From assembly GCA_037140115.1 (NCBI GenBank), contig JBAXFB010000001.1:1-40650 (forward strand): a stretch of 40,650 bases of DNA, given 5' to 3'. This stretch comes from a bacterium (lineage in GTDB: Bacteria; Patescibacteriota; Minisyncoccia; Phycocordibacterales; UBA9973). Shown here piece after piece: positions 10,054-37,068 of this stretch (its first letter is position 1; each line of letters opens with the position of its first letter). The position numbers and the translations under genes were made by a program. The notes beneath the pieces were generated by a model. It was given only the letters and a program-made list of their open reading frames with translations. It was not told the origin of the DNA and made no database searches.

Positions 10054-10599
10054 ATGGAAAATAAGGTGGGACAACTAGAGCAATTAGGTAAGTTAGTGCA
10101 ACCATCTCTAGAATATAAAGCTAGTTTTATTGAAGCTATGCGAGAGTTTCAAGCAGAGGGCAAGAAATTAAATATTGATATAGAAGATTTAGAAAATAAT
10201 TTCAATGAGTTCTTGGAAAAAATTGTTAAGGATGATGATCTGCCAGACGATCAAATACCTCAAACGGTACTTTGGCTTGTGGATAGAAATGAATTTATTG
10301 GTAGAGTTTCTGTAAGGCAACAACTAAATGAGCGACTCTTAAAAGAAGGTGGAAATATAGGATATGAAATACGACCTTCAAAAAGAAAATTCGGATATGG
10401 AAGTAAAATTTTAGAATTAGGGTTGCCTATTGCAAAAGGTCTTGGCATACATAAAGTTCTTTTAACTTGCGACGATGACAATGTTGGTTCAGTTAGAATT
10501 ATCGAAAAGAATGGAGGAGTTTTGGATAGAGAAAACCCAAAAATTATTTCCCCGGACAGTGGTAAAAATGTTCGTAGATATTGGATTGAAGTTAAATAA
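10054..10599 (+). CDS. GNAT family N-acetyltransferase
   Basis: IGYEIRPSKRKFGYGSKILELGL and NVGSVRIIEKNGGVL match the GNAT acetyl-CoA-binding core. Confidence 0.75.
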   Translation: MENKVGQLEQLGKLVQPSLEYKASFIEAMREFQAEGKKLNIDIEDLENNFNEFLEKIVKDDDLPDDQIPQTVLWLVDRNEFIGRVSVRQQLNERLLKEGGNIGYEIRPSKRKFGYGSKILELGLPIAKGLGIHKVLLTCDDDNVGSVRIIEKNGGVLDRENPKIISPDSGKNVRRYWIEVK

Positions 10600-10620
10600 T
10601 CTAGTGCTCTTGCTTTTAAT

Positions 10621-10640
10621 TTGTACATTTTGTACAATAT
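10621..10640 (+). promoter_or_regulatory. Tandem TTGTACA boxes (TTGTACAttTTGTACAatat), likely promoter/operator of the TA operon
   Basis: Two copies of TTGTACA (containing the palindrome TGTACA) 2 nt apart, ending in a TACAAT-like -10 element 4-9 nt before ATG 10645. Confidence 0.45.
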
Positions 10641-10644
10641 ACCC

Positions 10645-10893
10645 ATGAACAACATAAAAACACTTTCGACCACAAAATTACGTGAGAATATAAGCGATTT
10701 TATAGATATTGTAGCTACCAGTGGCAGGTCTATTGTACTTGGACGTAGAAACGTTCCAGAAGCGGTTCTCATACCGTTCCCCAATCTTTGGAATGGCAAA
10801 CTATCAGAAATAACAAATATCAATGCATATTCCAAAAGTTTTGATTTTCTTGCTGACGAGCCTGAAATTTACTCAATTAAAGATATAAAATAA
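10645..10893 (+). CDS. Type II antitoxin, Phd/YefM family
   Basis: MNNIKTLSTTKLRENISDFIDIVATSGRSIVLGRRNVPEAVLIPF fits the Phd/YefM N-domain. The track ORF starts at TTG 10621, but ATG 10645 is more plausible. Confidence 0.75.
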   Translation: MNNIKTLSTTKLRENISDFIDIVATSGRSIVLGRRNVPEAVLIPFPNLWNGKLSEITNINAYSKSFDFLADEPEIYSIKDIK

Positions 10894-10895
10894 AT

Positions 10896-11237
10896 ATGCA
10901 TAAGGCTGGTGATATAATTCTAACTCCTTTTCCCTTCACAGATCTTTCAGGAAACAAAGTTCGTCCAGCTTTAGTGCTTGGTGCCCAGAGTGGGGGCGAT
11001 GATGTTACAGTTTGTTTTATTTCATCAAATGTTTCTCAAAAAGTTCACAAGCTTGATGTTTTGGTTGATTCAACGGAAAAAAGTTTTCAAAAGACGGGTC
11101 TTAAGTTGCAATCAATAATTAAGATCACAAAAATCGCTACCCTAGATAAGGCCGTAGTTTTGGGTAAAATTGGCGTTTTGGATGCTGTAAACAGGAAGAA
11201 GGTAAAAGAAGTTTTAGGAATTTATTTTGGGATTTAA
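10896..11237 (+). CDS. Type II toxin, PemK/MazF family endoribonuclease
   Basis: GDIILTPFPFTDLSGNKVRPALVL is the PemK/MazF signature. Starts 2 nt after the antitoxin stop. Confidence 0.8.
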   Translation: MHKAGDIILTPFPFTDLSGNKVRPALVLGAQSGGDDVTVCFISSNVSQKVHKLDVLVDSTEKSFQKTGLKLQSIIKITKIATLDKAVVLGKIGVLDAVNRKKVKEVLGIYFGI

Positions 11238-11285
11238 TTTATCCACACTCAGTACAACAAATACTTGTGTTACAATTAGTAAACT

Positions 11286-12023
11286 ATGCTTCAGTCTTAT
11301 TATGTTCTTAACAATAATAATATTTTGTTAGACAACAAAGGCAAGAGGTATCATTTAAAGATACGTGATTTGCCTATAGAAGATAAGCCTCGTGAGAAAC
11401 TTTTAAAACACGGAGTTGGAGCTTTAACTTTGTCAGAATTGTTGGCCGTGGTTTTAAATACTGGCACAAAGAAAGAAGGAGTTTTGGAAATGTCTCTCCG
11501 CGTCATAAAAGATTACGGAGAGGGTGGCATAATGAGCCAAAAAAATCCTACAGCTTTGTCGAAAGACCTTGATATACCTATTGGAAAATCTCTTCAAATT
11601 GTAGCCTCTGCTGAGCTTGGTCGCAGGTTTTTTGAGAAGAATACAGCGTCACTGCCCACGATTCGAACTGCGAGTGAAGTGTATGAATATGTAAAAGATA
11701 TGCATAGTTTATCAAAAGAACACTTACGCGGTATTTATCTAAATGCTCACTACAAAGTAATTCATAATGAAATTATTTCGATTGGCACTGTGGATGCAAA
11801 CATTATCCATCCACGTGAAGTTTTCAAGCCAGCAGTTGAACATTGTGCTGTGGCCTTGATCCTTGTGCACAACCATCCATCTGGAGTAACTAGTCCAAGT
11901 GAAGCTGATTTGTCGATAACATCTCAGCTTGTTGCGGCCGGCAAATTGCTCGGGGTAGATCTGATCGATCATGTTATTGTTACTAAAGATTCATTTGCAA
12001 GTGTGCCCGTGCTTTACCATTAA
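11286..12023 (+). CDS. radC: RadC-like JAB domain protein (UPF0758)
   Basis: C-terminal JAMM-like motif LILVHNHPSGVTSPSEADLSIT. N-terminal helix-hairpin-helix-like LSELLAVVLNTGTK. Confidence 0.85.
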   Translation: MLQSYYVLNNNNILLDNKGKRYHLKIRDLPIEDKPREKLLKHGVGALTLSELLAVVLNTGTKKEGVLEMSLRVIKDYGEGGIMSQKNPTALSKDLDIPIGKSLQIVASAELGRRFFEKNTASLPTIRTASEVYEYVKDMHSLSKEHLRGIYLNAHYKVIHNEIISIGTVDANIIHPREVFKPAVEHCAVALILVHNHPSGVTSPSEADLSITSQLVAAGKLLGVDLIDHVIVTKDSFASVPVLYH

Positions 12024-18593: not shown

Positions 18594-19712
18594 TTACTCT
18601 AGATGTATCAAAGTCATCTTCTGATCCTTTGGTTCGAAGAGGGTGATTTGGAAATTGTAGTTCTTTCCAAGTTCTAGTTTCTCTCTTAGTTTTGCCTCTG
18701 TTGGAAAAGTTGAGTTGTGGACTAGTCCTGCTACGCCTTCCTTGATAGAGATCAGAGCACCATGTTTGTTGTATTTGATAACAACCCCCTTGATGATGTC
18801 TCCTTTTCTTAGTTTACCTTCGAATTCTTTCCAAGGATTTTCCTTTAGAGCCTTTACTGAAAGGGAACTCTTGCCATCTTTGATCTCGATAACTTTAGCG
18901 CGGATTTTGTCGCCAACCTTGAACATAGTTCGAGGATTGTCTACAAGACCCCAATCAAGTTCAGAGATGTGTACTAAGCCTTCTAGTCCGTCTTCTAGTT
19001 TTACGAAAACCCCGAAGTCTACAAGTCCAGCTACTGTACAATCTAGATCGTCGCCAACATTGTATTTACTTAGGATTTCCTTTTTCTCTTCTGGGTTGTT
19101 GTCCTTTTCAGAGAAGATCAATTTGCCTTCTTTTGGAAGGGTAGAGATGATCATCACAGAAATCTTTTGGCCGACGAGTTTCTTGAGCTCTTTTAATATC
19201 TTATCTTTATCAGAATCTAGAACGCGAGGGTAGTGGTCGGCTTTAAGTTGAGATGCAGGTAGGAAACCTTGGATACCTTGCCATTCCAAAATAAGTCCAC
19301 CTTTGTTTGCATCTTTGATTTCTAGGCTCATCACTGTCTTTTCCTTGATAGCTTTTTCAGCTTCGTTCCAAGTCAGCGCTTGCTTCGCTTCCTTTAGGGA
19401 AAGCTCGGTGTAGCCATCTGAGTTTTCTGTTTCGACAACCTTTGCCTTAATAATATCGCCTGGACGAATCTTCTTGATGATGTCCTTTGCGTTGATGAAT
19501 TCGCGACCATAAATGATACCTGTGCCAAATGGCGCCAAGTCTACATAAACAGATGATTTTTTGACGTTGATAACTGCTCCTTCTACTAATGTATCAACTT
19601 CAGGCTTGTTGACACTGCGAGATACGATCATGCCTAAAACTGAAGTGTCTTCGACTGGGGCTACTACTGGTTCTTTTTTCATATAATGTTTTAAAATTAA
19701 AAAATCCGCCAT
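18594..19712 (-). CDS. rpsA: 30S ribosomal protein S1 (four S1 domains)
   Basis: Repeated S1/OB-domain motifs (GxVxxVxxxGxFVxL-type: GLVDFGVFVKLEDGLEGLVHISEL and others). The true start may be the internal ATG at 19682 (MKKEPVV...), because codons 1-10 overlap a hairpin plus T-run. Confidence 0.85.
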   Translation of the reverse strand: MADFLILKHYMKKEPVVAPVEDTSVLGMIVSRSVNKPEVDTLVEGAVINVKKSSVYVDLAPFGTGIIYGREFINAKDIIKKIRPGDIIKAKVVETENSDGYTELSLKEAKQALTWNEAEKAIKEKTVMSLEIKDANKGGLILEWQGIQGFLPASQLKADHYPRVLDSDKDKILKELKKLVGQKISVMIISTLPKEGKLIFSEKDNNPEEKKEILSKYNVGDDLDCTVAGLVDFGVFVKLEDGLEGLVHISELDWGLVDNPRTMFKVGDKIRAKVIEIKDGKSSLSVKALKENPWKEFEGKLRKGDIIKGVVIKYNKHGALISIKEGVAGLVHNSTFPTEAKLREKLELGKNYNFQITLFEPKDQKMTLIHLE

Positions 19713-25946: not shown

Positions 25947-26387
25947 ATGAAACTCCCAAAAACAATCTTTGTATCCATTGCAATATTTTCCATTCTTGTT
26001 GTGCCAGCCTTATCCTTGGCGGAGACAACAGTAGATACAGATATTCCAGATGTGGTCGTGGGTGGCAGCTTGGTACCTTGTGGGCATCCAAATCCTAATC
26101 AGAATAATGAAATAACTAATCCATGCAGTTTTAAAGATGCTATAACTATGATAAATACCATTACCAACTTCATTCTTTACAAAATGGCTATTCCAATTTG
26201 TGCCATAATGTTTGCTTATTCTGGATTTTTGATGGTTAGCTCTGGTGGCAGTTCAGAGTCCTTAGGAAGAGCAAAAAAGATTTTTACGAGTACTGTTATG
26301 GGGCTTGCTTTTGTCGCAGGTGCATGGCTTATAGTGAAGACAGTTATCACCACCCTTGGTTATGATGCTACTTGGATTGGGTTTTAA
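25947..26387 (+). CDS. Small secreted two-TM protein, VirB2/TrbC-like pilin paralog 1
   Basis: Signal peptide (ALSLAE), Cys pair (PCGHP...NPCSF), then two hydrophobic helices separated by SSGGSSESLGRAKK. Confidence 0.55.
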   Translation: MKLPKTIFVSIAIFSILVVPALSLAETTVDTDIPDVVVGGSLVPCGHPNPNQNNEITNPCSFKDAITMINTITNFILYKMAIPICAIMFAYSGFLMVSSGGSSESLGRAKKIFTSTVMGLAFVAGAWLIVKTVITTLGYDATWIGF

Positions 26388-26391
26388 TTAT

Positions 26392-26790
26392 ATGTATAAT
26401 ACACTTATGAGTTTTACAAAGAGAAGTTGCTATGGTTTGTTTGTTATATTATCTCTTTTTATTGTGCCTGGAATAATTTATGCCCAAGGGGATGTTCCAG
26501 CTCCGTGTCTTCCTGCTGCTGGCAGGATTTGCAATCCGCTAGGAAATACCAACACAATCCCAGCTTTTATAAAAATTATTCTTGAAGGTGCACTCAAGGT
26601 GGGTATCCCTATCATCGCCCTTGCTGTAATTTATTGTGGCTTTCTCTTTGTTGCAGCACAGGGTAACCCTGAAAAATTAGGTAAGGCAAAAGATGCGTTG
26701 CTTTATACATTAATAGGGGCTGGAATCCTTTTGGGTTCCTTAGCCATTGCAGAACTCATTTCTGCGACCATAAAAAGTGTAACTTCTTAA
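26392..26790 (+). CDS. VirB2/TrbC-like pilin paralog 2
   Basis: Signal peptide (IIYAQG), Cys pair (PCLPAAGRIC), two TM helices separated by AAQGNPEKLGKAKD. The start could be 26392 or 26407. Confidence 0.55.
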   Translation: MYNTLMSFTKRSCYGLFVILSLFIVPGIIYAQGDVPAPCLPAAGRICNPLGNTNTIPAFIKIILEGALKVGIPIIALAVIYCGFLFVAAQGNPEKLGKAKDALLYTLIGAGILLGSLAIAELISATIKSVTS

Positions 26791-26794
26791 TAAT

Positions 26795-27214
26795 ATGAAA
26801 AAAATATTTAAATATCTTTATTTTTTATTACTAGTATTGTTTTATCCAAGCCTTTCACTGGCAACTAACTTAACGCCTGCAGGAGATACTTGTGAGCTTG
26901 GGACTACCGGGGTGACTTTTAGCTTACTCGTAAAATTTTTTATATGTAACATAAATACAGCCATAATACCTTTAATTTTCGTTCTTGCGTTCCTTATGTT
27001 CGTCTGGGGTGTAGTGAAATTCACCTTGAACAGTAGCGAAGAAATAAAAAAGGAAGAGGGGAGACAATTTATGCTTTGGGGTGTTGTAGGGTTAACAGTT
27101 ATGGTGTGCGTATGGGGGCTTGTTGGTATACTAGCCAACACCTTTCATGTTAACGTAAGGGTTATTCCACAGGTGCAGACTCCGGCTACAACAACACCTC
27201 CTACCACTCCTTAA
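26795..27214 (+). CDS. VirB2/TrbC-like pilin paralog 3
   Basis: Signal peptide (SLSLAT), two Cys, two TM helices with linker NSSEEIKKEEGRQ and motif MLWGVVGLTVMVCVWGLVGILANTF. Confidence 0.55.
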   Translation: MKKIFKYLYFLLLVLFYPSLSLATNLTPAGDTCELGTTGVTFSLLVKFFICNINTAIIPLIFVLAFLMFVWGVVKFTLNSSEEIKKEEGRQFMLWGVVGLTVMVCVWGLVGILANTFHVNVRVIPQVQTPATTTPPTTP

Positions 27215-27327
27215 GTTAATCCCCAGTTGCTTTTGCTTTTAAATATCCTTGTAGTATAATTATCAGTATTATTATTTAAGGTCGTTTTAATTATTAGAAA
27301 TTATTAATAACGTTTCTAGAAAATTAT

Positions 27328-27777
27328 ATGAAAAAGAAATTAGGTGTTTTATTTATGGTTTTTGGTTTGTTGATTAGTGTTGCAGCTCCTATGGCAGCAT
27401 TTGCTGTTACTACTCCTGCTGGTACTGGTACTGGTAATGGTTCTTGTTCTATTACAACTACCGATATAACTGGTGGTGCGTTGAATGGTGGTACAGACTG
27501 GGATTTAAGAGCGGTGATCTGTAGAATAGAAGGTATATTGAGTTCACTGGTTCCTCTTTTGATGATCTTTGGATTTCTTTACTTCATTTGGGGAGTTATC
27601 TCTTATGTTATCGCTGGTGATGAAGAAGCTAAGACAGCAGGTAGAGACAGAATCATCTACGGAGTTATTGGATTCACAGCTATCGTTACACTTTGGGGAT
27701 TGGTAGCAATCTTGGCAAACACATTCAACATAAACAAAGCAGTCACTGTGACTCTTCCAGTCATTACCAGTCATTAA
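27328..27777 (+). CDS. VirB2/TrbC-like pilin paralog 4
   Basis: Signal peptide (MAAFAV), two Cys, linker AGDEEAKTAGRDR, motif IIYGVIGFTAIVTLWGLVAILANTF (nearly the same tail as paralog 3). Confidence 0.55.
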   Translation: MKKKLGVLFMVFGLLISVAAPMAAFAVTTPAGTGTGNGSCSITTTDITGGALNGGTDWDLRAVICRIEGILSSLVPLLMIFGFLYFIWGVISYVIAGDEEAKTAGRDRIIYGVIGFTAIVTLWGLVAILANTFNINKAVTVTLPVITSH

Positions 27778-27816
27778 CAGTGTACAATGAAACTAAGATT
27801 CTTAAATATTGATTAA

Positions 27817-28140
27817 ATGGAATTTTTTTCTACAAAGGTAGCCTATGCAAGTATAGATACTTTTCTTGGAAAAGTTGAAACCCAGATCGTCAACCCTATC
27901 ATCGTCTTACTTTTTGCTCTAGCGTTAATGTACTTTCTTTATGGAGTTTTTGAATTCATAATGAACAGTGCTAACGACGAAAAGAAGACCACTGGTAAGG
28001 AACATATGCTTTGGGGGGTTATAGGTTTGACTATCATGCTTGGGGTTTGGTTTATTCTAGGAGTCGTATTGGATACATTCAATATTCCTAGAAACCAGAT
28101 TGATCCTGAGCATGGCAAGGTCAACTTACCTGTAAAGTAG
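27817..28140 (+). CDS. VirB2/TrbC-like pilin paralog 5 (no Cys pair)
   Basis: Two TM helices with linker NSANDEKKTTGKEH and motif MLWGVIGLTIMLGVWFILGVVLDTF. Confidence 0.5.
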   Translation: MEFFSTKVAYASIDTFLGKVETQIVNPIIVLLFALALMYFLYGVFEFIMNSANDEKKTTGKEHMLWGVIGLTIMLGVWFILGVVLDTFNIPRNQIDPEHGKVNLPVK

Positions 28141-28716: not shown

Positions 28717-28798
28717 TGGGCAAGGGGGGACTCGAACCCCCAAGTCTTGCGACATTAGTTCCTAAGACTAACGCGTATACCAATTCCGCCACTTGCCC
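28717..28798 (-). tRNA. tRNA-Leu (anticodon UAG), type II with long variable arm
   Basis: The reverse complement folds as GGGCAAG/CTTGCCC acceptor, anticodon loop CTTAGGA, variable arm TGTCGCAAGACTT, T-arm GGGGG-TTCGAGT-CCCCC. Confidence 0.93.
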
Positions 28799-28893
28799 AA
28801 TAAGAATTATTTCTTACCTGAACAAGCATAGCATATTTTCTAAAAAAATCACTCTTATTTGTAGGATGTACCACATTTAGATGTTATACTTTT

Positions 28894-30012
28894 TTGGTGA
28901 AAAATTTTCTCAGGAATTTCCCCATAGAGATGTACGTCCTTTTGTTTCCTTCTATTCTTTTTTTATTAGTGGTGAGTGTATACCTGACTTTTCAAGGTTC
29001 CACTTTTATTGAAGATTTTTTTCATGGATATTTCCTATATCAGCTTTTTGCTATAGATGTCATCTTGCCTGTGGTTACACTCGTACTAGCGTCCAACCTT
29101 GTTGAGATTTCAATCATGTTAAGTAAAGGTGTCGAACGTTCTTTGATTTTTAGATTTTTACGAAGCGCCTTTTTTCTTCTAAGTGTTTTTTCTATTAGTC
29201 TTGTGTCTTTATCTGTTGGGGTTCAGTTTGTTTTTATGAAGGCTGATCCTGTTCGTGTCGCCACAATGTCTGTTATGTTTACCCATTGGGATCACGTACT
29301 CTTTGGAGCATATCCTTGGATTTCTTGGCACTCGTTCTTTACTGGCCCTTGCCTGCAACAGTTTATATATTTTTCTTATTCAAGTCTTGTGTCCGTTCTC
29401 ATTATTGTTTTAGTAGTTTCATTCCTACACAAAACACATATCTTGAGAAAGTTAGTGCTATCTTTTTGTTTAGTTACTTTTTTAGGTATGCCATTTTGGA
29501 TTGCTCTACCATCTTTATCTCCAGACCTAATGTATCGAGTAAATATTTTGGGTGTTTCTGTGCAATCTGATGTGAAAGAATCTCTTGAAGGTACTAGTTT
29601 TTCTAAAATTACTGAGGACACATTGGATACTCTTGAAAAATTTTGGTCTGACCCCAAAAAGGAGTCTTTGCCTGTAACTTCTTTTCCATCCATGCATGCA
29701 GCTTGGGGTGTTATTGTTACAGTTGTGGGTATAGAGCTTTGGGCACCATCTGCTTTTTTTCTGATCCCTTGGCTCTTGGCTGAGTTAGTTGCCACAGTGC
29801 TTACGTTGGAACATTATGCTGTGGATACGATCTTCGGGGCACTCTTAGGCTTACTTGCTTTGTGTGTTGCATCGCGTCTACTTTCTTTTGATAAAAAAAG
29901 ATTTGTCGATAAGTGGGACTTGTTCCTTTCAATAGGTCAAATCCAGACAGATTTAGAAAAGGCAGTAGATTGGCTAAAAGCGAAAATAAAATACGCTTTA
30001 AAGCTAACTTAG
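28894..30012 (+). CDS. PAP2-superfamily membrane protein (phosphatase/phosphotransferase-like)
   Basis: Polytopic. SFPSMHAAW and LEHYAVD match PAP2 C2/C3 motifs (SxH, HxxxD). The track start is TTG 28894. ATG 28930 is an alternative. Confidence 0.65.
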   Translation: MVKNFLRNFPIEMYVLLFPSILFLLVVSVYLTFQGSTFIEDFFHGYFLYQLFAIDVILPVVTLVLASNLVEISIMLSKGVERSLIFRFLRSAFFLLSVFSISLVSLSVGVQFVFMKADPVRVATMSVMFTHWDHVLFGAYPWISWHSFFTGPCLQQFIYFSYSSLVSVLIIVLVVSFLHKTHILRKLVLSFCLVTFLGMPFWIALPSLSPDLMYRVNILGVSVQSDVKESLEGTSFSKITEDTLDTLEKFWSDPKKESLPVTSFPSMHAAWGVIVTVVGIELWAPSAFFLIPWLLAELVATVLTLEHYAVDTIFGALLGLLALCVASRLLSFDKKRFVDKWDLFLSIGQIQTDLEKAVDWLKAKIKYALKLT

Positions 30013-30072
30013 TCATTGTGCCCCTAATAGTATCAAATTGGAACCTAATTATCAACCAAATAAAGGGTTTTT

Positions 30073-30663
30073 CTATGTCTTAACCTTTTTAAATTTTCTC
30101 AAAAAGACTATTTCTCCTATTATTATGAATTTCGTTAATAGAACTGAGGCAGGATATATCCAGTTAACTAGAGAGTAGCTACCCATAGAAAAAATAGATA
30201 GAGAATGTTTTACTGCATCCACATACATTGAACCCAATGACTCACTGTGTGGTGCATGCCAAGTTTTTCGCATAGTTGGAAAGAACGCTATTAAATCAAT
30301 AAGTGTTGCAAGTATAACTGACCATAATACACTATCAACTAAAAGCCAAGGTAGAATTGCCACTAAAGAAAAAACTAAACATATTTTATCAAACCTCGTA
30401 ATATCTTTTGTGCCGTATCCACCCCTTAAAGAAAGAATTAATGTGAAAATAGTTACAATTGCTGCGACTCCTGTTGCCCACGATCCTGGACCTCCACCAG
30501 AGACCCATTGTCCAAAGAAAGCTATTGTAGTGACAATGGCCCAGATAAGCCAAGTGTATGTATGAGGTTTTGTATTACCCCGAAAAATATCTTTAATGTA
30601 TAGAAAGGAACTGAAAAGGGCAAGAAGTGCTGCAATTGCTCCAAGGATTATTTTTATGTCCAT
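30073..30663 (-). CDS. Polytopic membrane protein, unknown function
   Basis: 196-aa ORF with about 6 hydrophobic helices. Flanked by a 16/17-nt direct repeat. Confidence 0.55.
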   Translation of the reverse strand: MDIKIILGAIAALLALFSSFLYIKDIFRGNTKPHTYTWLIWAIVTTIAFFGQWVSGGGPGSWATGVAAIVTIFTLILSLRGGYGTKDITRFDKICLVFSLVAILPWLLVDSVLWSVILATLIDLIAFFPTMRKTWHAPHSESLGSMYVDAVKHSLSIFSMGSYSLVNWIYPASVLLTKFIIIGEIVFLRKFKKVKT

Positions 30664-30738
30664 TTCAGAATTGTATCAAATTTGGAACCAAAAGACTCAA
30701 GGTAGCAACAAAAAGCATAATTTGCTATACTTATTTCT

Positions 30739-32049
30739 ATGATAAAGTCGGTAAGCATAAAAAACTTCAGAAGTATAGAAAACCAGAAGGTTGAACTTAC
30801 GCCTATAGTTTTTATTTATGGTAATAATGCGGCTGGTAAGTCGTCTTTATTCTATTCTTTTAATATTCTTAGAAACATAGTATCTAACCCAAACCAGCCG
30901 ATAGATAGTTTTTTTAGTTTAGGTTTTGCAAACCTTGGTAGTTTTAAAAAGGTTGTAACCAAACATGATGAAACAAAGACAATCACAATTTCTATAGATG
31001 GTTTGGTGGGTAAGGTAAATTTTACATATGGAGTCAAAATCAATCCAAAAAGGAGTGAATTTTTCTTGCATCTAGATAAACCTTATTCTTTAGAATTTTC
31101 TTTGCCAGTTACTTTTCCTTATCCACTTAACTTGAATGTTGAAAATCCTGTTACTTTTGATGATGTAGAATATAAAATAAACTGGAATGGAGTAACTGCG
31201 CAAGTAAGTTCAACAATTGCGACTCCCACCGACAGTTCAAATAAAAAGATAAGAGAGATTACTTTTTTATTGAACAAAATTGCAGAACTTATTCGTTCCG
31301 TTGATTTGGTTTCTGTTAGAAGAGGTTTTTTTGAACCCCAATATGGAGCTGTCAACATTACTCAATTTCCCATAAAAGAAGAAGAAGTTGCTTCAGTTCT
31401 GGCTGTGGATGAAAATCTTGATCATCAAGTTAATTCTTACTTAGAACAAATGATAGGGCGTCAATTTAGAGCTAAACCCAAATTAGGTACTTCTCTTGCT
31501 GAATTAACTACTATTGACCCAGAAGCAAAAATAAATTCCGATGTAGTTAATGATGGTTTTGGAGTTAACCAATTGGTATTCGTTTTAGCAAAGATGTTAA
31601 ATAAAAGTATACATACTGTATGCCTAGAAGAACCAGAATCTAACTTACACCCAGGGGCAGTTAGAAAACTTCCACAATCATTTATTGAAATAGCAAAAAA
31701 AGAAAATAAGCAATTAATTATTACAACCCACAGCGAGGCCTTAATTATTGCAATGCTTTCTGCTGTGGCAAAAGGTGAGGTTGCAAAAGAAGATGTGAGT
31801 TTTTACTTAACGCTAAGACAATCTGATACTGGTATTACATCTTTTGAAAAACAAGAAGTTTCAGAAGAAGGAGAAATACCAGGTGGTCTTAAAAGTTTTA
31901 TGGCTGGAGAACTTGAGGACATAAAAGGATTTTTTAAATCAAAACGAGGTAAGAAAAATGTAGAAAAAATGGTAGATGATAATACTCAAATTGCACATCA
32001 AGATTCAACAGAGAATCAAAATACAATTGAAAAACCATTGGAGCAATAA
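30739..32049 (+). CDS. ABC/AAA15-AAA21-type ATPase (OLD/Gabija GajA/PARIS AriA/Septu PtuA-like ATPase architecture)
   Basis: N-terminus SIKNFRSI plus Walker A GNNAAGKSS. C-terminal NDGFGVNQL (signature-like), Walker B VCLEEPESNLHP, H-loop ITTHS. TATACT at 30726-30731 lies 7 nt before the ATG. Confidence 0.8.
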   Translation: MIKSVSIKNFRSIENQKVELTPIVFIYGNNAAGKSSLFYSFNILRNIVSNPNQPIDSFFSLGFANLGSFKKVVTKHDETKTITISIDGLVGKVNFTYGVKINPKRSEFFLHLDKPYSLEFSLPVTFPYPLNLNVENPVTFDDVEYKINWNGVTAQVSSTIATPTDSSNKKIREITFLLNKIAELIRSVDLVSVRRGFFEPQYGAVNITQFPIKEEEVASVLAVDENLDHQVNSYLEQMIGRQFRAKPKLGTSLAELTTIDPEAKINSDVVNDGFGVNQLVFVLAKMLNKSIHTVCLEEPESNLHPGAVRKLPQSFIEIAKKENKQLIITTHSEALIIAMLSAVAKGEVAKEDVSFYLTLRQSDTGITSFEKQEVSEEGEIPGGLKSFMAGELEDIKGFFKSKRGKKNVEKMVDDNTQIAHQDSTENQNTIEKPLEQ

Positions 32050-32057
32050 ACATTTTT

Positions 32058-32558
32058 ATGTCAGTTCCTATTATTGTAGATGAATGGCTATTTGAAGACT
32101 TAGCTGGTAAAAATGGTGCAGATAAACAAAGCCAAGCTGTACAATTTTTGTATAAGCTTGAAGAAATTTGTGATCGAATTGTTGTTTTAGAGGGAAGTCC
32201 TTTTGAGAAAAAAATGCATGATCTTATGGGGAGCACAAATGATTCTTGTCGTTTTAGAGCAGCTAGAAGTGTTTTCATTGAACTTATAAGTAGCAACTCC
32301 TTGAAGAAGTGTTTTATTGCCAAGGAAGACATAAGTGCTTTGCCTGATGATGTTATAAAACTTATTCACAAAATAAATCCTTCCTCAACAAAAGACCACT
32401 ACTTATTCCAAGCCCACCAAAAACTAAAACATAAAGATTGTTTTATCTTAACTAGCGATGGTCGCTGGGAAAATGAAAAATTAAAGAAAAAAGGTTTTCG
32501 GATTGTAATGAAAGATTCTTTTATTACTCAATATTTGGAACGTGAGATTTCTAATTAG
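32058..32558 (+). CDS. Hypothetical 166-aa partner protein, PIN-like acidic-residue pattern (possible nuclease effector)
   Basis: Starts 9 nt after the ATPase stop. PIIVDEWLFEDL (N-terminal Asp), LEEICD, KDHYLFQAH, FILTSDGRW give a D...E...D...D spacing like PIN-fold domains. Assignment is by eye only. Confidence 0.4.
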   Translation: MSVPIIVDEWLFEDLAGKNGADKQSQAVQFLYKLEEICDRIVVLEGSPFEKKMHDLMGSTNDSCRFRAARSVFIELISSNSLKKCFIAKEDISALPDDVIKLIHKINPSSTKDHYLFQAHQKLKHKDCFILTSDGRWENEKLKKKGFRIVMKDSFITQYLEREISN

Positions 32559-32703
32559 GTTCTTTGATTTTTGCAAAAGTTAAAAACAGTCTAGCATACG
32601 AGTCAAGATATTCATTGGCAGTTTCTTTAGATATGTCTAAGTTGTGTTCTTCTTTAAAGTTTTTAATGAGTTCTTCTATCAGTTTGTCGCTATACTGGTG
32701 CAT
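32551..32703 (-). CDS. Small ORF a, 50 aa: MHQYSDKLIEELIKNFKEEHNLDISKETANEYLDSYARLFLTFAKIKEPN
   Basis: Not in the ORF track (under 60 aa). 24 of 49 ungapped identities with the adjacent small ORF b. Its stop overlaps the convergent 32058-32558 stop in the palindrome CTAATTAG. Confidence 0.55.
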   Translation of the reverse strand: MHQYSDKLIEELIKNFKEEHNLDISKETANEYLDSYARLFLTFAKIKEPN

Positions 32704-32709
32704 AAAAAT

Positions 32710-32859
32710 TTATTTTTCTTTAGATTCAGCAAATACAGCAAACATTCCTCCTAGGGAGTCTAAATATTCAACAGCAGTTTCTTCATTGACATGATGATTA
32801 TATCTTTTAGTAAAATAGATAATTATTCTTTGTATAAGTTTGTCGCTATATTTATGCAT
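32710..32859 (-). CDS. Small ORF b, 49 aa: MHKYSDKLIQRIIIYFTKRYNHHVNEETAVEYLDSLGGMFAVFAESKEK
   Basis: Not in the ORF track. The ATG overlaps the DUF2726 gene stop (ATGCATAA), which suggests translational coupling. Paralog of ORF a. Confidence 0.55.
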   Translation of the reverse strand: MHKYSDKLIQRIIIYFTKRYNHHVNEETAVEYLDSLGGMFAVFAESKEK

Positions 32860-33328
32860 GAAGTTTTTCTTTTATTCTAGTTATTGATTGAGCAAAATCA
32901 GTTCCAACTTTAACCGTCTCAAAAGGTAGTCCTGCATCCTCAAAAATTTGCTTTTTTATAGAATCTTTTTGTTCTTGTCTTGGACTATTATGATAACCAC
33001 CATTCACTTCTATGGCGACCACAGGCTTAAAATAATAATCACAAATTAAAAAGTCTATATGTTTCGGTAAAACACTATTTCTCATGTGATAGTAGCCTCT
33101 ACCGCTTTTAGTTTCTATGATGTCAGCGATACGCATCTTTGGAAAAATATGATAGCCCTGAGGTAATTGTTTTTGTAGTTCAAAGAAGAAAGCAGATTCA
33201 GTGCTATTCATTACGCTTGATCGCTTTTTGTAAATGCTATCTTTCCTTGCGTCAGTTCTGGGTTGTTTCAAATACGGTACTAGAAAAACAGCAAGCAATA
33301 CAACTACAATAAAAAATATTATTACCAT
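32852..33328 (-). CDS. Membrane-anchored DUF2726-like (restriction-endonuclease-fold) protein
   Basis: N-terminal TM helix, then STESAFFFELQKQLPQGYHIFPKMRIADII...HIDFLICD...VVAIEVNGGYH...RQEQKDSIKKQIFEDAGLPF. This matches the DUF2726 pattern (D...E.x nuclease core) as I recall it. Confidence 0.7.
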   Translation of the reverse strand: MVIIFFIVVVLLAVFLVPYLKQPRTDARKDSIYKKRSSVMNSTESAFFFELQKQLPQGYHIFPKMRIADIIETKSGRGYYHMRNSVLPKHIDFLICDYYFKPVVAIEVNGGYHNSPRQEQKDSIKKQIFEDAGLPFETVKVGTDFAQSITRIKEKLHA

Positions 33329-33353
33329 AATTAATTTTGTTAAAAAATAATTA

Positions 33354-33480
33354 TGATGGGCTAGAAAACAAAAAGCCCATCACGGGTAGAGACTTGCGTC
33401 TCTCGTATAAGTTTCCCTATACGGCCTATCAAGCGACCCCATGACGGGTTCTTTACTCTTGATAGGACTTTTAGCCATGC
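33354..33480. ncRNA. GC-rich structured intergenic segment (candidate ncRNA or leader; strand unresolved)
   Basis: Hairpins GATGGGCT-11 nt-AGCCCATC, GAGAC-ttgc-GTCTC, CCTATCAAG-24 nt-CTTGATAGG. Direct repeat CCCATCACGGGT / CCCATGACGGGT. Sits in a 230-bp divergent intergenic region. Confidence 0.3.
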
Positions 33481-33558
33481 CATTTCTGGTTTAGACTACT
33501 TATTAAGTTATGTTGAGAATTATAGCTTTTTGGCTCTAAAATTGCTAGATTTAAAATT

Positions 33559-34359
33559 ATGGATAAGTTTATAGATGTTATTAAATCTCATTATGAAATG
33601 GCTCTCAAAAGTGGCACAGGACTCCCTTTCTATAGTGATGTTAATCACTATCTTTTTTACATAATCAAAACTCCCAAACTCTACGCTATTATCACAGACG
33701 AATATGCAAAATTAAAAAATGAATTAAAGGAAATTAAAGAGAATCCTTTTTTATCGTCTTCGGCAGAAGAAGACATTTTAGACCAAACAAAAAAAATTTC
33801 ACTATATACAGATTATATAGTCTTATATAAAGCAATCTATCTTCCTTTTCAAGCGAACGACAACGAATCCATTCTCAGCGAAGAAAATTCAAAAGCCCTT
33901 TTCTATCTAGGTGGCATTGAAAAGGTTCCTGAAAAAGAACGCTCATTTTGGCAAGATTCATTCGCCTCACACTTTGAAAGAAATAAAAAACATTTTACTA
34001 ATTTACATTTTAAACTGTTAGAGATTTTGGAAACAAAAAATAAGGAATTAGTTGTAAAAAATAAAGATTTTGATTTTGATGTTAATACTGGTCAATTTAG
34101 ATATTTTAAAACAAAGGGCACTTTTTCTCCTAAAAAGAAAGAATTTAAATTCTTAAAAACACTTTATTTTAAAAATAGCCACCAAGCTACTTACGCAGAG
34201 CTATCTGATGTTGATCAAGCTTCCAGAAACGACAAAATTAAATTAACTGAGACTGTTAGAAATGTAAAAACCAAACTAGGTATTCTTTCAAAGACTAAAC
34301 ACAAAAATAAAGATATTATAAAAACCGTTTCAGGATATGGTTATGAATTAGATATCTAG
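33559..34359 (+). CDS. Hypothetical protein with C-terminal OmpR/CadC-type winged-helix DNA-binding domain
   Basis: The C-terminus KKEFKFLKTLYF...ATYAEL...LTETVRNVKTKLGI...IIKTVSGYGYELDI fits the trans_reg_C pattern (EF..L, V...V..LR.KL, I.TV.G.GY.L). No receiver domain. Confidence 0.55.
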   Translation: MDKFIDVIKSHYEMALKSGTGLPFYSDVNHYLFYIIKTPKLYAIITDEYAKLKNELKEIKENPFLSSSAEEDILDQTKKISLYTDYIVLYKAIYLPFQANDNESILSEENSKALFYLGGIEKVPEKERSFWQDSFASHFERNKKHFTNLHFKLLEILETKNKELVVKNKDFDFDVNTGQFRYFKTKGTFSPKKKEFKFLKTLYFKNSHQATYAELSDVDQASRNDKIKLTETVRNVKTKLGILSKTKHKNKDIIKTVSGYGYELDI

Positions 34360-34404
34360 CACCAGAAAATTCCCATAATTTTTCGTACTAACCAATAGTC
34401 ATTT

Positions 34405-34428
34405 CCTCTACTATGATAGAGGTTTTTT
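34405..34428 (+). terminator. Rho-independent terminator
   Basis: CCTCTA-ctatga-TAGAGG followed by TTTTTT. Confidence 0.7.
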
Positions 34429-34449
34429 GTTATGGGTCGATCTGGTGCA

Positions 34450-34503
34450 ACGCCCGCCCACCGCTTTAGCGGGGCGGGCGTGGGACGAGCGAAGCGAAGT
34501 CCC
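34450..34503 (+). promoter_or_regulatory. Two strong GC hairpins upstream of the Rep gene (candidate double-strand origin/nick-site region)
   Basis: ACGCCCGCC(ca)CCGC-ttta-GCGGGGCGGGCGT (13 bp, nearly all G:C) and GGGAC-gagcgaagcgaa-GTCCC with a tandem GCGAA in the loop. Lies 50 nt upstream of ATG 34553. Confidence 0.4.
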
Positions 34504-34552
34504 GACTTGCTTTCTCACTAACTTAATAAGATAAGAGAAAAATATTATTTTT

Positions 34553-35323
34553 ATGGGTTACAGCAAAACTATTATTAGTGGAAATAATTTAGAAAGAACT
34601 GACTATGAAAAAGACGTCATCAGTTTGGGAAGAAGCACAGGAAACAGGAAGACTACTCCTGCAACTGAGAATATGGGAACTAGCGGAAAAGATACACTTT
34701 CGGAAAGGGACAGTGCCACAACATTGGGGAAGCGACGAGACAACGCACAACGCTCTAGTGTGGCTTTCCGAAGGATCGTTGCATCTAACCTCGGAGGACT
34801 TACACGCCCTCTACTGGTTACTCTTACCTACCGAGATAATTTCACAGACCTTAAAGGAAGCTATAAGCATTTCTCATCTTTTATCCAATCTCTACGCTAT
34901 AAATTCGGAAAAGATTTTAAATACATCAGTGTCCCAGAATTTCAAAAGCGTGGAGCAGTTCATTTTCACGCTCTCTTCTGGGGGTTACCCGAGGGAATAT
35001 TTTTACAAGAACGGAAAACTAGAACACTTGCCGAACTTTGGGCAAGGGGTTTTGTTTATTTAAAAGAAACTGACGGCAATGAAAAATTATCTTTTTATTT
35101 ATCAAAATATATGGCAAAAGCATTCATAGACCCAAGACTAAAAAATCAGAAATGCTATGTTGCTTCTCGTAACATTCAAAGACCAACAGTTATTGTCGGT
35201 GCTTCTCCTCTTTGGGTTATTCTTGAGGATTATGGAATTACTGACGAGCCATTAATTGATAGAGAATATCCGACAAAATATTTAGGCAAAGGTCGGTATA
35301 GGTTATTTAAAATTCCAAAATGA
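34553..35323 (+). CDS. HUH-superfamily rolling-circle replication initiator (two-tyrosine type, phiX174 gpA / Microviridae VP4-like motifs)
   Basis: Motif 1 LVTLTY, motif 2 (HUH) GAVHFHALFWG, motif 3 YLSKYMAK (Y-x-x-K-Y-x-x-K, two catalytic Tyr spaced as in phiX174 gpA YVAKYVNK). Confidence 0.75.
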   Translation: MGYSKTIISGNNLERTDYEKDVISLGRSTGNRKTTPATENMGTSGKDTLSERDSATTLGKRRDNAQRSSVAFRRIVASNLGGLTRPLLVTLTYRDNFTDLKGSYKHFSSFIQSLRYKFGKDFKYISVPEFQKRGAVHFHALFWGLPEGIFLQERKTRTLAELWARGFVYLKETDGNEKLSFYLSKYMAKAFIDPRLKNQKCYVASRNIQRPTVIVGASPLWVILEDYGITDEPLIDREYPTKYLGKGRYRLFKIPK

Positions 35324-35505
35324 TCAGCCTTGAAGACCTAAAAAGAATAGAGCCTAAACTTCAAGGGAAGTCTGACGAGGAATTAACAAAAATCCGTAAT
35401 TTATTATATGGTTTAGGTCAATTAACTTTGGAAACATATTTAGAAAGAAAAAGTGGTTCCAAATTTCCCGTTGGGGTATATGGACTTAATAATGAGGATA
35501 TGTAA
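35320..35505 (+). CDS. Hypothetical 61-aa protein
   Basis: ATGA overlap with the Rep stop. No motif recognised. Confidence 0.4.
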   Translation: MISLEDLKRIEPKLQGKSDEELTKIRNLLYGLGQLTLETYLERKSGSKFPVGVYGLNNEDM

Positions 35506-35509
35506 AAGT

Positions 35510-37057
35510 ATGGATATGCAAGAAAACAAAAATGCAATAATCTATGTCCGTGTGTCTTCTAGTGAACAAGTAGACGGCACAAGCTTAGAATCTCAAGAAA
35601 GATTTTGCAAAGAATACGCTCAAAAAGAAAACTTAAATATTCTTTCAATTTTCATTGAAAAAGGTGAATCGGCTAAAACTGCTGACCGCACGGAATTTAT
35701 AAAAGCCATTAGTTTTTGCTCCGATAAGAAAAACAAAGTTAGCTATTTTATTGTTGCTAAAATTGATCGTTTTTCTAGGAACCAAACCGACTATGCTATA
35801 GTCAAACAAAAACTACAAAAGTATGGAACGGAAATCAGATCAGTCTCGGAAAAAATTGACGATACGCCATCGGGTAAGTTGATGGAAGTTATGCTCTCTG
35901 GCTTTGCTGAATTTGATAACAACATCAGAACTGAAAGAAGTGTTAATGGTATGAAAGAACGCTTAAAACAGGGCGTATGGGTCTGGCAAGCTCCTCTAGG
36001 CTACTATCGGACTGAAAAGGGTGGAAATATCACTCCTGACCCTAAAACCGCTCCGTTTATAAAAATGGTGTTTGAAGAATATGCTAAGGGAACTTACACT
36101 TTTGAATCTTTAGCTAGGTTCTTAAAAGAAAAAGGTTTTGTTTCTCGCTATGGTAGAACTGTAATTTCCCAGACGATAGAAAAAATAATCAAGAATCCAA
36201 TTTACTGCGGAATAATTAAAGTTTGGGATAATGAAAGCAAAGGAACTTTTAAACCGATTATCAGTGAGAATCTTTTTTACCTTTGCCAAAAAGACGGCAG
36301 AAGGGATAGGGGTAAATTACACTTCGTAAAGAACCCCGATTTTCCACTTAGGAATTTAGCCACTTGCCAATTTTGTGGCGATCCTTTAACTGGTAGTCAT
36401 TCAACAGGGCGTAAAGGCAAACGCTATCCATATTACCACCACCATAAAGTTAATTGTGATTATGCAAAGTCTATTCCTAAAGAAAATTTTGAGCAGATAT
36501 TTGTTGAATATTTGAATGAAATAAATCCTAGTATTGAATATGAAAAAGCTTTCAAAGCTATCGTTATTGATATTTGGAAAAATAACTGTAAGGGTTTTAA
36601 CAATCAGAACGAGGCTCTTAGAAAAGAAATTAAAGAACTGGAAAATAGTAAGCAACATATTTTTGATTTACACCAAAGTGGTGTTTATGACGACACTGAT
36701 TTCACTACTCAGAAAAATATTGTCTGTAAAAAGATTGCTCAAAAAGAAAGTTTAATTCACGACAAAAGAATCCAAGAATTTAATATGGAAGAAGCCTTAG
36801 AATTTTGTTTTGATACAGTTCGCCATAGTGCAAGGTCTTGGGTTGAATACGAGAAAGAACCTGAGAAAAGAATCCGATTCCAAAATTTTATATTTGAGGA
36901 AAATCTGCCTTATGCTGAAAACAAATTTGGAACCGCAAAGTTAACGCCTATTTACAGCGTATATCAACAATACTTAGTGAATCCATCTAACTTGGTGCGT
37001 CCAGCAGGGATCGAACCTGCGACCTTATCCTTAAGAGGGATCTGCTCTACCAGCTGA
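35510..37057 (+). CDS. Large serine recombinase (integrase)
   Basis: AIIYVRVSSSEQ (catalytic Ser), IVAKIDRFSRN, recombinase domain, zinc-ribbon-like CQFCGDPLTGSHS...YYHH, coiled-coil C-terminus. The start is chosen after the stop of the 61-aa ORF (the track start 35453 overlaps it). The last ~21 codons are antisense to tRNA-Lys. Confidence 0.85.
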   Translation: MDMQENKNAIIYVRVSSSEQVDGTSLESQERFCKEYAQKENLNILSIFIEKGESAKTADRTEFIKAISFCSDKKNKVSYFIVAKIDRFSRNQTDYAIVKQKLQKYGTEIRSVSEKIDDTPSGKLMEVMLSGFAEFDNNIRTERSVNGMKERLKQGVWVWQAPLGYYRTEKGGNITPDPKTAPFIKMVFEEYAKGTYTFESLARFLKEKGFVSRYGRTVISQTIEKIIKNPIYCGIIKVWDNESKGTFKPIISENLFYLCQKDGRRDRGKLHFVKNPDFPLRNLATCQFCGDPLTGSHSTGRKGKRYPYYHHHKVNCDYAKSIPKENFEQIFVEYLNEINPSIEYEKAFKAIVIDIWKNNCKGFNNQNEALRKEIKELENSKQHIFDLHQSGVYDDTDFTTQKNIVCKKIAQKESLIHDKRIQEFNMEEALEFCFDTVRHSARSWVEYEKEPEKRIRFQNFIFEENLPYAENKFGTAKLTPIYSVYQQYLVNPSNLVRPAGIEPATLSLRGICSTS

Positions 37058-37068
37058 GCTATGGACGC
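36993..37068 (-). tRNA. tRNA-Lys (anticodon CUU), CCA encoded
   Basis: Reverse complement GCGTCCA-TA-GCTC-AGCTGGTA-GAGC-A-GATCC-CTCTTAA-GGATA-AGGTC-GCAGG-TTCGATC-CCTGC-TGGACGC-A-CCA. Confidence 0.93.

Follow-up and report, generated by a model that had tools for sequence, protein, structure and literature searches.

The 40,650 nt of DNA analysed here (contig JBAXFB010000001.1, GenBank assembly GCA_037140115.1; hereafter the window) most probably carry, at ~30018-36997, an integrative rolling-circle element that is 6.98 kb long, sits at the extreme 3' end of a tRNA-Lys(ctt) gene in a Nomurabacteria-like Patescibacteria genome of the candidate phyla radiation (CPR), and belongs to a large family of elements that lack Zot. 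The original prediction, made from the letters of this DNA, had described an integrated rolling-circle replicon without a capsid gene and with a serine recombinase at tRNA-Lys, and this description is supported by an empty site in a relative, by the left and right attachment sites (attL and attR) and by synteny in dozens of loci. The segment that it named, 33559-37068, is real, but the element is twice as long, and the left border, which had been left open, is now located at ~30018.

Where does the element begin and end? Close relatives of the window were picked via homologues of RbfA, and their comparison with the window establishes both the insertion, which had been predicted to adjoin a tRNA gene, and its two ends. 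In the window, tRNA-Lys(ctt) (36993..37068, minus strand), beyond which follow tRNA-Leu(taa) and then tRNA-Cys, is separated from tRNA-Leu(tag) at 28798 by a gap of 8.2 kb. In the relative L098 (RbfA 88% identical) the order is RbfA, tRNA-Cys, HNH gene, tRNA-Leu(taa), tRNA-Lys(ctt), 36 nt, tRNA-Leu(tag), so that the same two genes lie 36 nt apart and form an empty site; they are also neighbours in L100-L102. The attL-type site (30018..30045, plus strand) opens with GTG, the crossover region, and continues into the P' arm CCCCTAATAGTATCAAATTGGAACC, and the crossover GTG of attR occupies 36995-36997 at the extreme 3' end of the tRNA gene. The 14 nt to the left of attL (30004-30017, CTAACTTAGTCATT) match the L098 sequence directly 3' of tRNA-Lys (CTTACCTAGTCAGT), and the left flank of attL and attR together tile the L098 empty site with the junction GTGC, which delimits the element to ~30018-36997. 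The tRNA-Lys genes of the relatives end in ACAC or ACAA without CCA and that of the window encodes ACCA; the CCA of the window gene thus comes from the element. G+C content dips to 0.31-0.35 over 30-37 kb, in agreement with this span.

The left end could be recognized because the junctions of two related loci, L017 and L018, revealed the arm motif TTGGAACC, and the window site is of the same type as their mapped attL. The pattern GTG-NYCCYA-N(10-14)-TTGGAACC occurs once in the window, where none is expected (100 shuffles), and elsewhere in 14 copies in 8 loci, every copy on the Rep strand upstream of rep and none in a locus where the recombinase shares less than 49% identity with that of the window. 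A looser form of the pattern gave one match in 3 Mb of shuffled sequence.

The family was assembled from 176 further loci with a relative of the replication initiator (Rep), of which 149 were unique. The order Rep, serine recombinase, antisense tRNA recurs in ~90 of the 149, nearly all labelled Patescibacteria, so that synteny extends through the family. Within the clade whose Rep is at least 45% identical to that of the window (93 loci) the recombinase lies directly downstream in 70, and 40 of the 45 close-clade recombinase loci with enough sequence end at a minus-strand tRNA. The flanking tRNAs of both clades represent 12 species: Gln (29), Glu (8) and Leu (4), and also Ile, Ser, Trp, Asp, Tyr, Arg, Val, Gly and Pro. 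Clustering of open reading frames (ORFs) gave as backbone genes Rep (60 loci), the recombinase (57), a 50-aa protein (36), a 266-aa protein (13) and a 61-aa protein (12).

Recent mobility of a relative is demonstrated by L017 and L018, two Nomurabacteria metagenome-assembled genomes that share 5129 bp (element plus tRNA-Glu) at 99.8% identity, whereas the sequences on either side are unrelated or match at 68-74%. At their left junction host DNA passes into GTGATCCTACGGGGA and then GCGATTTGGAACC. The right junction of L017 has a tRNA of host type (GTGACCCCACGGAG) and the left one retains the element-type copy, and since attR is thus host-type and attL element-type, the exchange is placed at the very 3' end of the tRNA (~TTG|GTG); the junction t|TGGTG is shared by this whole recombinase clade (19 of 19 loci). 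To the left of its junction L018 retains a truncated 3' portion of an older recombinase gene, and this arrangement indicates tandem accretion at the same tRNA. The cargo of the L017/L018 element comprises a His-Me/EndoVII nuclease and an N6/N4 DNA methylase.

A sister element, L183, has the same gene order as the window (ATPase, partner, small ORF on the minus strand, DUF2726 and LOOT RNA both on the minus strand, 266-aa protein, Rep, small ORF, recombinase), with its 266-aa protein, recombinase and DUF2726 protein 68%, 64% and 62% identical to those of the window. The L183 ATPase (AAA_21) is unrelated to the window ATPase and sits in the same slot, and the L183 Rep (11089-11913) is 30% identical to that of the window, the DNA match, 64-75% similar elsewhere, breaking exactly over the origin and rep. 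The ATPase pair therefore occupies a cargo slot, and the rep/origin module is exchangeable between elements.

Several observations weigh against the interpretation of the window as a mobile element of this kind. None of the ~90 loci yielded a recombinase-bearing contig that is circular or contains attP, and none of the 70 close-clade recombinase loci is circular. No near-identical second copy of this element was found, and its 90%-identity protein cluster has a single member. The two attachment sites share just ~4 nt (GTGC at 30018 and 36995), and with no long repeat between them the left end is deduced from the family motif and from the match to the empty site; a direct repeat of the tRNA-Lys 3' end that could serve as attL was sought by repeat search, exact matches of at least 11 nt, 13-20-mers with 2-3 mismatches and local alignment against shuffles, with nothing significant, and a tRNA-Glu-like remnant is likewise absent. 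A very short shared core without a direct repeat of at least 11 nt is what would be expected of the hybrid attL and attR of a serine integrase, and in L017 the tRNA-like sequences that adjoin the core differ between the two ends. Lastly, a 1.2-kb segment outside attL with a PAP2 gene is also missing in the relatives, and the element model gives no account of it. An inverted similarity of 28864-28883 to the right junction scored below shuffles and was dropped.

The PAP2-family membrane protein gene occupies 28894-30012, between tRNA-Leu(tag) and the old tRNA-Lys 3' flank; at its position L098 and L100-L102 have only 36-175 nt. The flanks of the segment, CTTACCT at 28813-28819 and CTAACTT at 30004-30010, both resemble one stretch of the L098 spacer, and the segment may be a separate insertion.

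The Rep (34553..35323, plus strand, 256 aa) is an HUH rolling-circle replication initiator, identified by profiles, alignment and motifs. The three HUH motifs that had been predicted are present (LLVTLTY, HFHALFW and YLSKYMAK), and an alignment of 30 sequences shows no variation at L88, T90, T92, H137, H139, K185, Y186 and K189, while at least 90% of the sequences keep Y182. The predicted two-tyrosine arrangement Y-x-x-K-Y-x-x-K (Y182 and Y186) is borne out as well, being kept in 157 of 172 Rep homologues, down to 27% identity. Profile searches against protein families place the Rep above cutoff in Pfam PF23343 REP_ORF2-G2P (74.8 bits against a cutoff of 27.8, E=7e-21) and match PHROG 3419, 'rolling circle DNA replication initiation' (3e-28). 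A database search returned 375 homologues, many on contigs of 3-6 kb and several on far longer ones (hundreds of kb) that bear the labels Nomura-, Pacei-, Campbell-, Taylor-, Zambryski- or Saccharibacteria.

To which replicons is this Rep related? The original prediction had likened its tyrosine motif to those of phiX174 gpA and Microviridae VP4, an analogy that is now disfavoured. In an AlphaFold2 model of the Rep (pLDDT 80) the best structural matches in BFVD are ORF2/G2P Reps (E=2e-14, TM ~0.6), with microvirus replication initiators more distant (E ~1e-7, TM ~0.4). Solved HUH domains in the PDB match the model weakly, with circovirus Rep 7kij at probability 0.98 and E=0.01 and none below 0.001, and a profile of the Rep finds no match among PDB sequences. 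Free circular contigs with Rep relatives exist, and of the 8 unique ones (defined by terminal overlap, 4.2-7.6 kb) 7 encode a Zot/pI-type ATPase next to rep and none has a recombinase. These Zot-encoding circles, which are inovirus-like genomes, supply the closest viral Reps and have in common with the element a conserved box and a hairpin upstream of rep. A Microviridae-like provirus or a derivative of one would explain the YxxKYxxK motif and the structural match of microvirus initiators, but neither the window nor any related locus examined has the major capsid protein (F/VP1) of that family, Zot is encoded instead by the closest circular relatives, and the ORF2/G2P matches are the better ones, so that this explanation is scarcely credible. 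The closest kin of the Rep are the gpII/ORF2-type Reps of inoviruses, rather than VP4 of microviruses, as judged from profiles and from the structure model.

A gpII-type Rep with a putative origin immediately upstream is an inovirus feature, and it is present in the element. The gene for the 266-aa protein is followed by an intrinsic-terminator-like hairpin with a T-run (34405..34430, plus strand) and then by a GC-rich hairpin (34450..34481, plus strand), the putative origin stem-loop. The latter, predicted earlier as ori-like, folds better as DNA than all 200 shuffles (z=-3.8, 0/200 as stable), and it is found in most related loci, where its position is kept and its sequence differs. Next comes a conserved 30-nt box, GACTTGCTTTCTCACTAACTTAATAAGATA (34504..34533, plus strand), as putative Rep recognition and nick site of the double-strand origin. 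In 27 other loci a copy of the box with at most 9 mismatches in 30 precedes the rep start by 0-26 nt, mostly with 0-3 mismatches where the Rep is at least 60% identical, and the layout of box and hairpin fits recognition and nicking by Rep. The TTAATA core of the box presumably resembles the nick region of Ff gpII. A sigma-70 promoter was considered for the box and rejected, the hexamer spacing being unfit and the box lying 0-26 nt from the ATG.

The large serine recombinase, or integrase, is encoded at 35510..37057 on the plus strand; the ORF is open from 35453, and the ATG at 35510 is the start of the public gene call. The prediction of such a gene beside a tRNA cluster (tRNA-Lys, tRNA-Leu(taa) and tRNA-Cys) is confirmed by three domains above cutoff, PF00239 Resolvase (7e-32), PF07508 Recombinase (7.5e-15) and PF13408 Zn_ribbon_recom (1.9e-6), together with a match to PHROG 95 integrase (1.5e-84) and NCBIfam similarity to CcrB and XisF. 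The ORF overlaps the antisense tRNA-Lys by 65 nt, and its last 21 codons (36995-37057) are antisense tRNA-Lys. The GTG of attR (36995) and the GTG of attL (30018) both lie in the recombinase reading frame, and when the sequence left of attR is joined to the sequence right of attL the frame is kept and the tRNA-encoded tail VRPAGIEPATLSLRGICSTS is replaced by VPLIVSNWNLIINQIKGFSMS, giving a predicted circular-form tail …NLVPLIVSNWNLIINQIKGFSMS. Such reconstructions have an open extension of 17-31 codons with an invariant W-N and a loosely conserved helical pattern in 12 of 12 unique cases from eight loci. Constraint on the DNA and constraint on the protein are inseparable here because the arm motif TGGAAC encodes W-N. 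The attP site would accordingly be located inside the integrase ORF, and integration would swap the last 20 codons and so alter the C-terminus.

These features define a common plan for the family. To the left lies variable, mostly defence-like cargo; the backbone comprises an optional LOOT RNA on the opposite strand, a 50-aa-family protein and/or the 266-aa protein, the GC hairpin and the 30-nt box, the two-tyrosine HUH Rep, sometimes a 61-aa ORF, and the serine recombinase with attP in its 3' end. The serine recombinase would join attL (30018) with attR (36995) and free a circle, in which the conserved W-N integrase tail would be restored in place of the tRNA-encoded one. Rep would nick the box beside the hairpin and drive rolling-circle replication, Y182 and Y186 alternating, and the double-stranded form would re-enter a tRNA 3' end, supplying its CCA. 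As no free circular recombinase contig was seen among the ~90 loci, excision is inferred.

How might an element with this gene content move between cells? Capsid genes had been predicted to be missing, and no capsid or morphogenesis gene was found in the window by Pfam, PHROGs or tblastn with Zot-like proteins and the other large proteins of the Zot-encoding circles. Zot itself is absent from the window (Pfam, PHROGs, tblastn with seven Zot-like proteins) and from the recombinase-bearing close-clade loci, and among the hallmarks of Inoviridae/Tubulavirales the pI/Zot ATPase, coat and adsorption proteins were not found in the window, which has no homologue of the large Zot-circle proteins. Because it lacks morphogenesis genes the element should be unable to form virions alone. 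Its lineage nevertheless appears, from the sequence comparisons, to be related to the Zot-encoding inovirus-like circular genomes of the same hosts. A tentative refinement, which we consider possible although it is not the favoured reading, is that the element is a satellite of CPR inoviruses, its own Rep replicating it and the Zot-type machinery of a co-resident filamentous phage packaging or exporting its single-stranded DNA. The Reps of the Zot-encoding circles are 41-53% identical to that of the window, the box (GACTTG...CTAAC.TAAT) also lies upstream of rep in the Zot-encoding L043, L085, L090 and L015, and more than 70 loci without morphogenesis genes keep rep and the putative origin intact. 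Inoviruses are moreover known in CPR bacteria, with serine recombinases and tRNA attachment sites among the integration features of inoviruses (Roux et al. 2019, PMC6813254). Against a satellite stands the fact that no packaging signal was identified.

A kinship with filamentous phages also invites the opposite view, that this is a decayed inovirus prophage, immobile after the loss of Zot and of its structural genes. Four distant loci in which Zot, recombinase and tRNA occur together would agree with it, as would the missing circular form. However, random decay would not leave one compact Zot-less layout, with rep, int, box and att intact, in more than 70 loci; two diverged genomes share a Zot-less relative of 5.1 kb at 99.8% identity, and every ORF of the window element is intact. 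Decay is for these reasons very improbable.

Transfer by conjugation was weighed as well. The element could be an integrative mobilizable element whose HUH protein acts mainly as a relaxase that nicks the box as oriT, with transfer through a type IV secretion system or pilus of the host or a helper and with replication secondary, after the manner of Rep-type relaxases in streptococcal mobilizable elements or of RepSA in pSAM2-type elements. Five paralogous T4SS_pilin (PF18895) genes lie 2-4 kb to the left of the element, at 26356-28000 beside a solute-binding protein gene, but they are host DNA: the cluster is conserved in relatives without the element (L098, L101, L102) and hence is no part of it. 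The Rep has weak partial matches to RepSA of pSAM2, in Pfam at 3e-5 and in NCBIfam at 0.0027, both far below cutoff (23.8 against 34 bits and 16.7 against 700 bits), whereas its best family matches are phage replication initiators. Mobilizable elements with initiators of the rolling-circle type have been described (PMC5704250), but the window element has neither a coupling protein nor an FtsK-like translocase, and we regard this explanation as doubtful.

How does the integrative rolling-circle element that we favour compare with known systems? The closest described arrangement is that of the Ralstonia inoviruses phiRSM1 and phiRSM3, in which a pII-type Rep is likewise followed by a serine recombinase, and attP, beside the recombinase gene, is likewise a reverse-oriented tRNA 3' end, with a core of 13 nt of tRNA-Ser (PMC3816273). 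The phiRSM recombinase, however, is of the small resolvase/invertase type and is accompanied by full structural and assembly modules, whereas the present element has a large recombinase with attP inside the ORF, no morphogenesis genes, Patescibacteria hosts, a LOOT RNA and defence-like cargo. With the cryptic inoviruses of Roux et al. 2019 it shares the Rep superfamily, its Rep relatives occurring in Zot/pI-encoding circles of ~4.2-6.3 kb; because that catalogue was built on pI/Zot searches, Zot-less elements fall outside it. An actinomycete integrative and conjugative element of the pSAM2 type (Streptomyces) is similarly small, integrated at a tRNA, equipped with a rolling-circle initiator and replicated after excision, but has a tyrosine integrase with Xis and an FtsK-like Tra, none of which was found in the element.

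Other parallels concern single features. RS1 and TLC of Vibrio cholerae have a Rep and an origin but no morphogenesis genes, reside in the chromosome, are related to the co-circulating CTX-type filamentous phages that they use, and integrate via the host XerCD at dif; the present element differs in its own large serine recombinase and its tRNA targets. In Mx8 and SSV1 attP lies within the int gene and integration changes the 3' end of the integrase, but these are tyrosine integrases of double-stranded DNA viruses, whereas the present enzyme is a large serine recombinase and receives antisense tRNA sequence as its new tail. No description of this element family was found in the full-text literature on Patescibacteria with serine recombinase or rolling circle, and the family, which is large and related to filamentous phages, is apparently undescribed.

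A structured RNA of ~110 nt, LOOT (Rfam RF03000), lies on the strand opposite rep at 33388..33497 (minus strand; 80.8 bits against a gathering score of 46.4), with predicted transcription away from the rep operon. The Rfam model finds 12 further copies (70-91 bits) in nine related loci. By profile search, 12 of 60 recombinase-bearing loci with upstream sequence, as well as L183, have LOOT antisense to rep and 0.5-4.7 kb upstream of it, and in L003 and L038 LOOT lies inside repeat-delimited elements. It is absent from five host-only control loci (L098-L102) and from the Zot-encoding circles. The pairing is strand-specific: the LOOT strand gives 26 G-U pairs and 13 mismatches, the opposite strand 5 and 34. 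Together with the loops, GAAA, UUCG and GCAA, this fits an RNA rather than a single-stranded DNA origin. A scan of IMG/VR with a LOOT pattern gave 17 pattern matches, of which 2 were true copies, neither beside this Rep, so the link between LOOT and these elements is non-exclusive. LOOT is nonetheless a recurrent component of them, which is a new finding; in the literature covered it is a metagenome-derived motif with strong covariation and no function given (PMC7779021), and mentions are confined to Rfam and method papers.

The two IMG/VR copies lie at 4756-4866 of L199, with a distant serine recombinase ~6 kb away, and at 681-800 of L200. On the Zambryskibacteria contig L044 three LOOT copies (1497-1617 minus, 9473-9585 minus, 19131-19244 plus) and two serine recombinase genes occur within 20 kb, which suggests several elements or element remnants. 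In the window the LOOT 5' end is preceded, at a distance of 21 nt, by a perfect TATAAT (33519-33524, minus strand) with a weak -35, in a 60-nt divergent intergenic region that also holds a promoter-like site of the 266-aa gene (33513-33542).

The ORFs of the original prediction were found at 33559-34359, 34553-35323 and 35320-35505, with the recombinase ending at 37057. The first of these (plus strand), which encodes the 266-aa protein, had been labelled a winged helix-turn-helix protein, a label that could not be firmed up: residues 192-264 match Trans_reg_C below threshold (E=0.022), 2 of the 12 family members searched match Trans_reg_C (best 2.3e-4) and 1 matches HTH_Mga, and an AlphaFold2 model built on 2 sequences is unusable (pLDDT 40). 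A database search gave one homologue, and a PDB profile search nothing credible. Members of this family were found in 13 loci, some 1.2 kb upstream of rep. With a possible C-terminal winged-helix DNA-binding domain, the protein may be a regulator or an origin-binding accessory protein.

The 61-aa ORF between rep and the recombinase gene (35320..35505, plus strand) recurs without change of position in 12 genome loci and in more than 20 from metagenomes, and has no match in Pfam, PHROG or PDB. Two tandem paralogues of 50 aa (32551-32703) and 49 aa (32710-32859), both on the minus strand, belong to a small helical family specific to these elements, which is present in 36 of 60 recombinase-bearing loci, usually on the plus strand directly upstream of rep, and has no Pfam or PDB match. 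Between the two families hhalign detects no relationship (probability 0.9%). The small ORFs of the element are hydrophilic, and the 61-aa and 50-aa proteins are candidate recombination directionality factors.

The defence-like genes at 30.7-33.3 kb had been proposed as possible cargo, and since the left end lies at ~30018 they are indeed inside attL and count as cargo of the element. An ABC/OLD-type AAA ATPase (30739..32049, plus strand; Pfam AAA_15 1e-19, AAA_21 4e-17; PADLOC NsnB 2.5e-32, also AbiLi and AriA) is followed by a 166-aa partner ORF (32058..32558, plus strand), which has no match in Pfam, PHROG, PADLOC or NCBIfam profile searches; L183 has an ORF of 181 aa in the same place. A DUF2726 protein of a nuclease-like fold family (32852..33328, minus strand; Pfam 5e-24) has homologues in the same position in L002, L005, L051 and L183. 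The leftmost gene inside attL encodes a 196-aa multi-pass membrane protein (30073..30663, minus strand) for which Pfam, PADLOC and NCBIfam gave no match. The gene lies between the full attL-type site and a partial second copy of the P' arm (AATTGTATCAAATTTGGAACCAA; 30669..30691, plus strand), a direct repeat with 30026-30048 that is 78% identical and is without the GTG-CCCCTA part.

Similar arrays, of complete attL-type sites, occur upstream of rep in L122 (100, 2761, 3236 and 3687), L123 (124, 599 and 1050) and L127 (5008 and 5345), with intervals of ~450 nt that each hold one small minus-strand ORF. Like the bracketed gene of the window, they may reflect cassette-like capture, or tandem insertion followed by deletion.

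A bolder extension of the preferred reading, which we think rather unlikely as a whole, is that these are CPR-wide, virion-less derivatives of filamentous phages that combine transfer by inoviruses or by pilus/competence systems with a functional LOOT RNA and a self-editing switch of integrase directionality. LOOT would then be a candidate for complementary-strand priming or for the control of copy number or immunity, the W-N tail, made only in the excised circle, would be a built-in directionality switch, and the arrays of L122, L123 and L127, like the membrane protein gene of the window, would represent integron-like capture of single-gene cassettes.

The mobile elements of Patescibacteria are poorly charted, and in such tiny genomes each insertion counts. 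A family with both ends defined is now in hand, with ~90 loci in the sampled data, many tRNA targets and defence-type cargo, and LOOT gains a genomic home. The family ties Zot-less elements to the inovirus-like circles of the same hosts, which phage surveys that use pI/Zot as marker overlook, and its large serine integrases, which are compact, have defined tRNA targets and receive a different tail upon integration, may interest developers of genome-integration tools.

Some further observations concern more distant loci and the host surroundings. Distant Rep relatives (~30-35% identical) without a serine recombinase occur in Clostridia and Deferribacteres (L053, L054, L060 and L063-L065), flanked by direct repeats of 32-59 nt from the 3' parts of tRNA-Ser or tRNA-Leu, the pattern expected of tyrosine-integrase elements. 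In L098 an HNH endonuclease gene (10496-10978) lies between tRNA-Cys and tRNA-Leu(taa), where the window has nothing, so the same tRNA cluster holds another small insertion. At the far left, positions 1-159 of the window are the 3' end of a bacterial 16S rRNA gene (Rfam, 120.5 bits).

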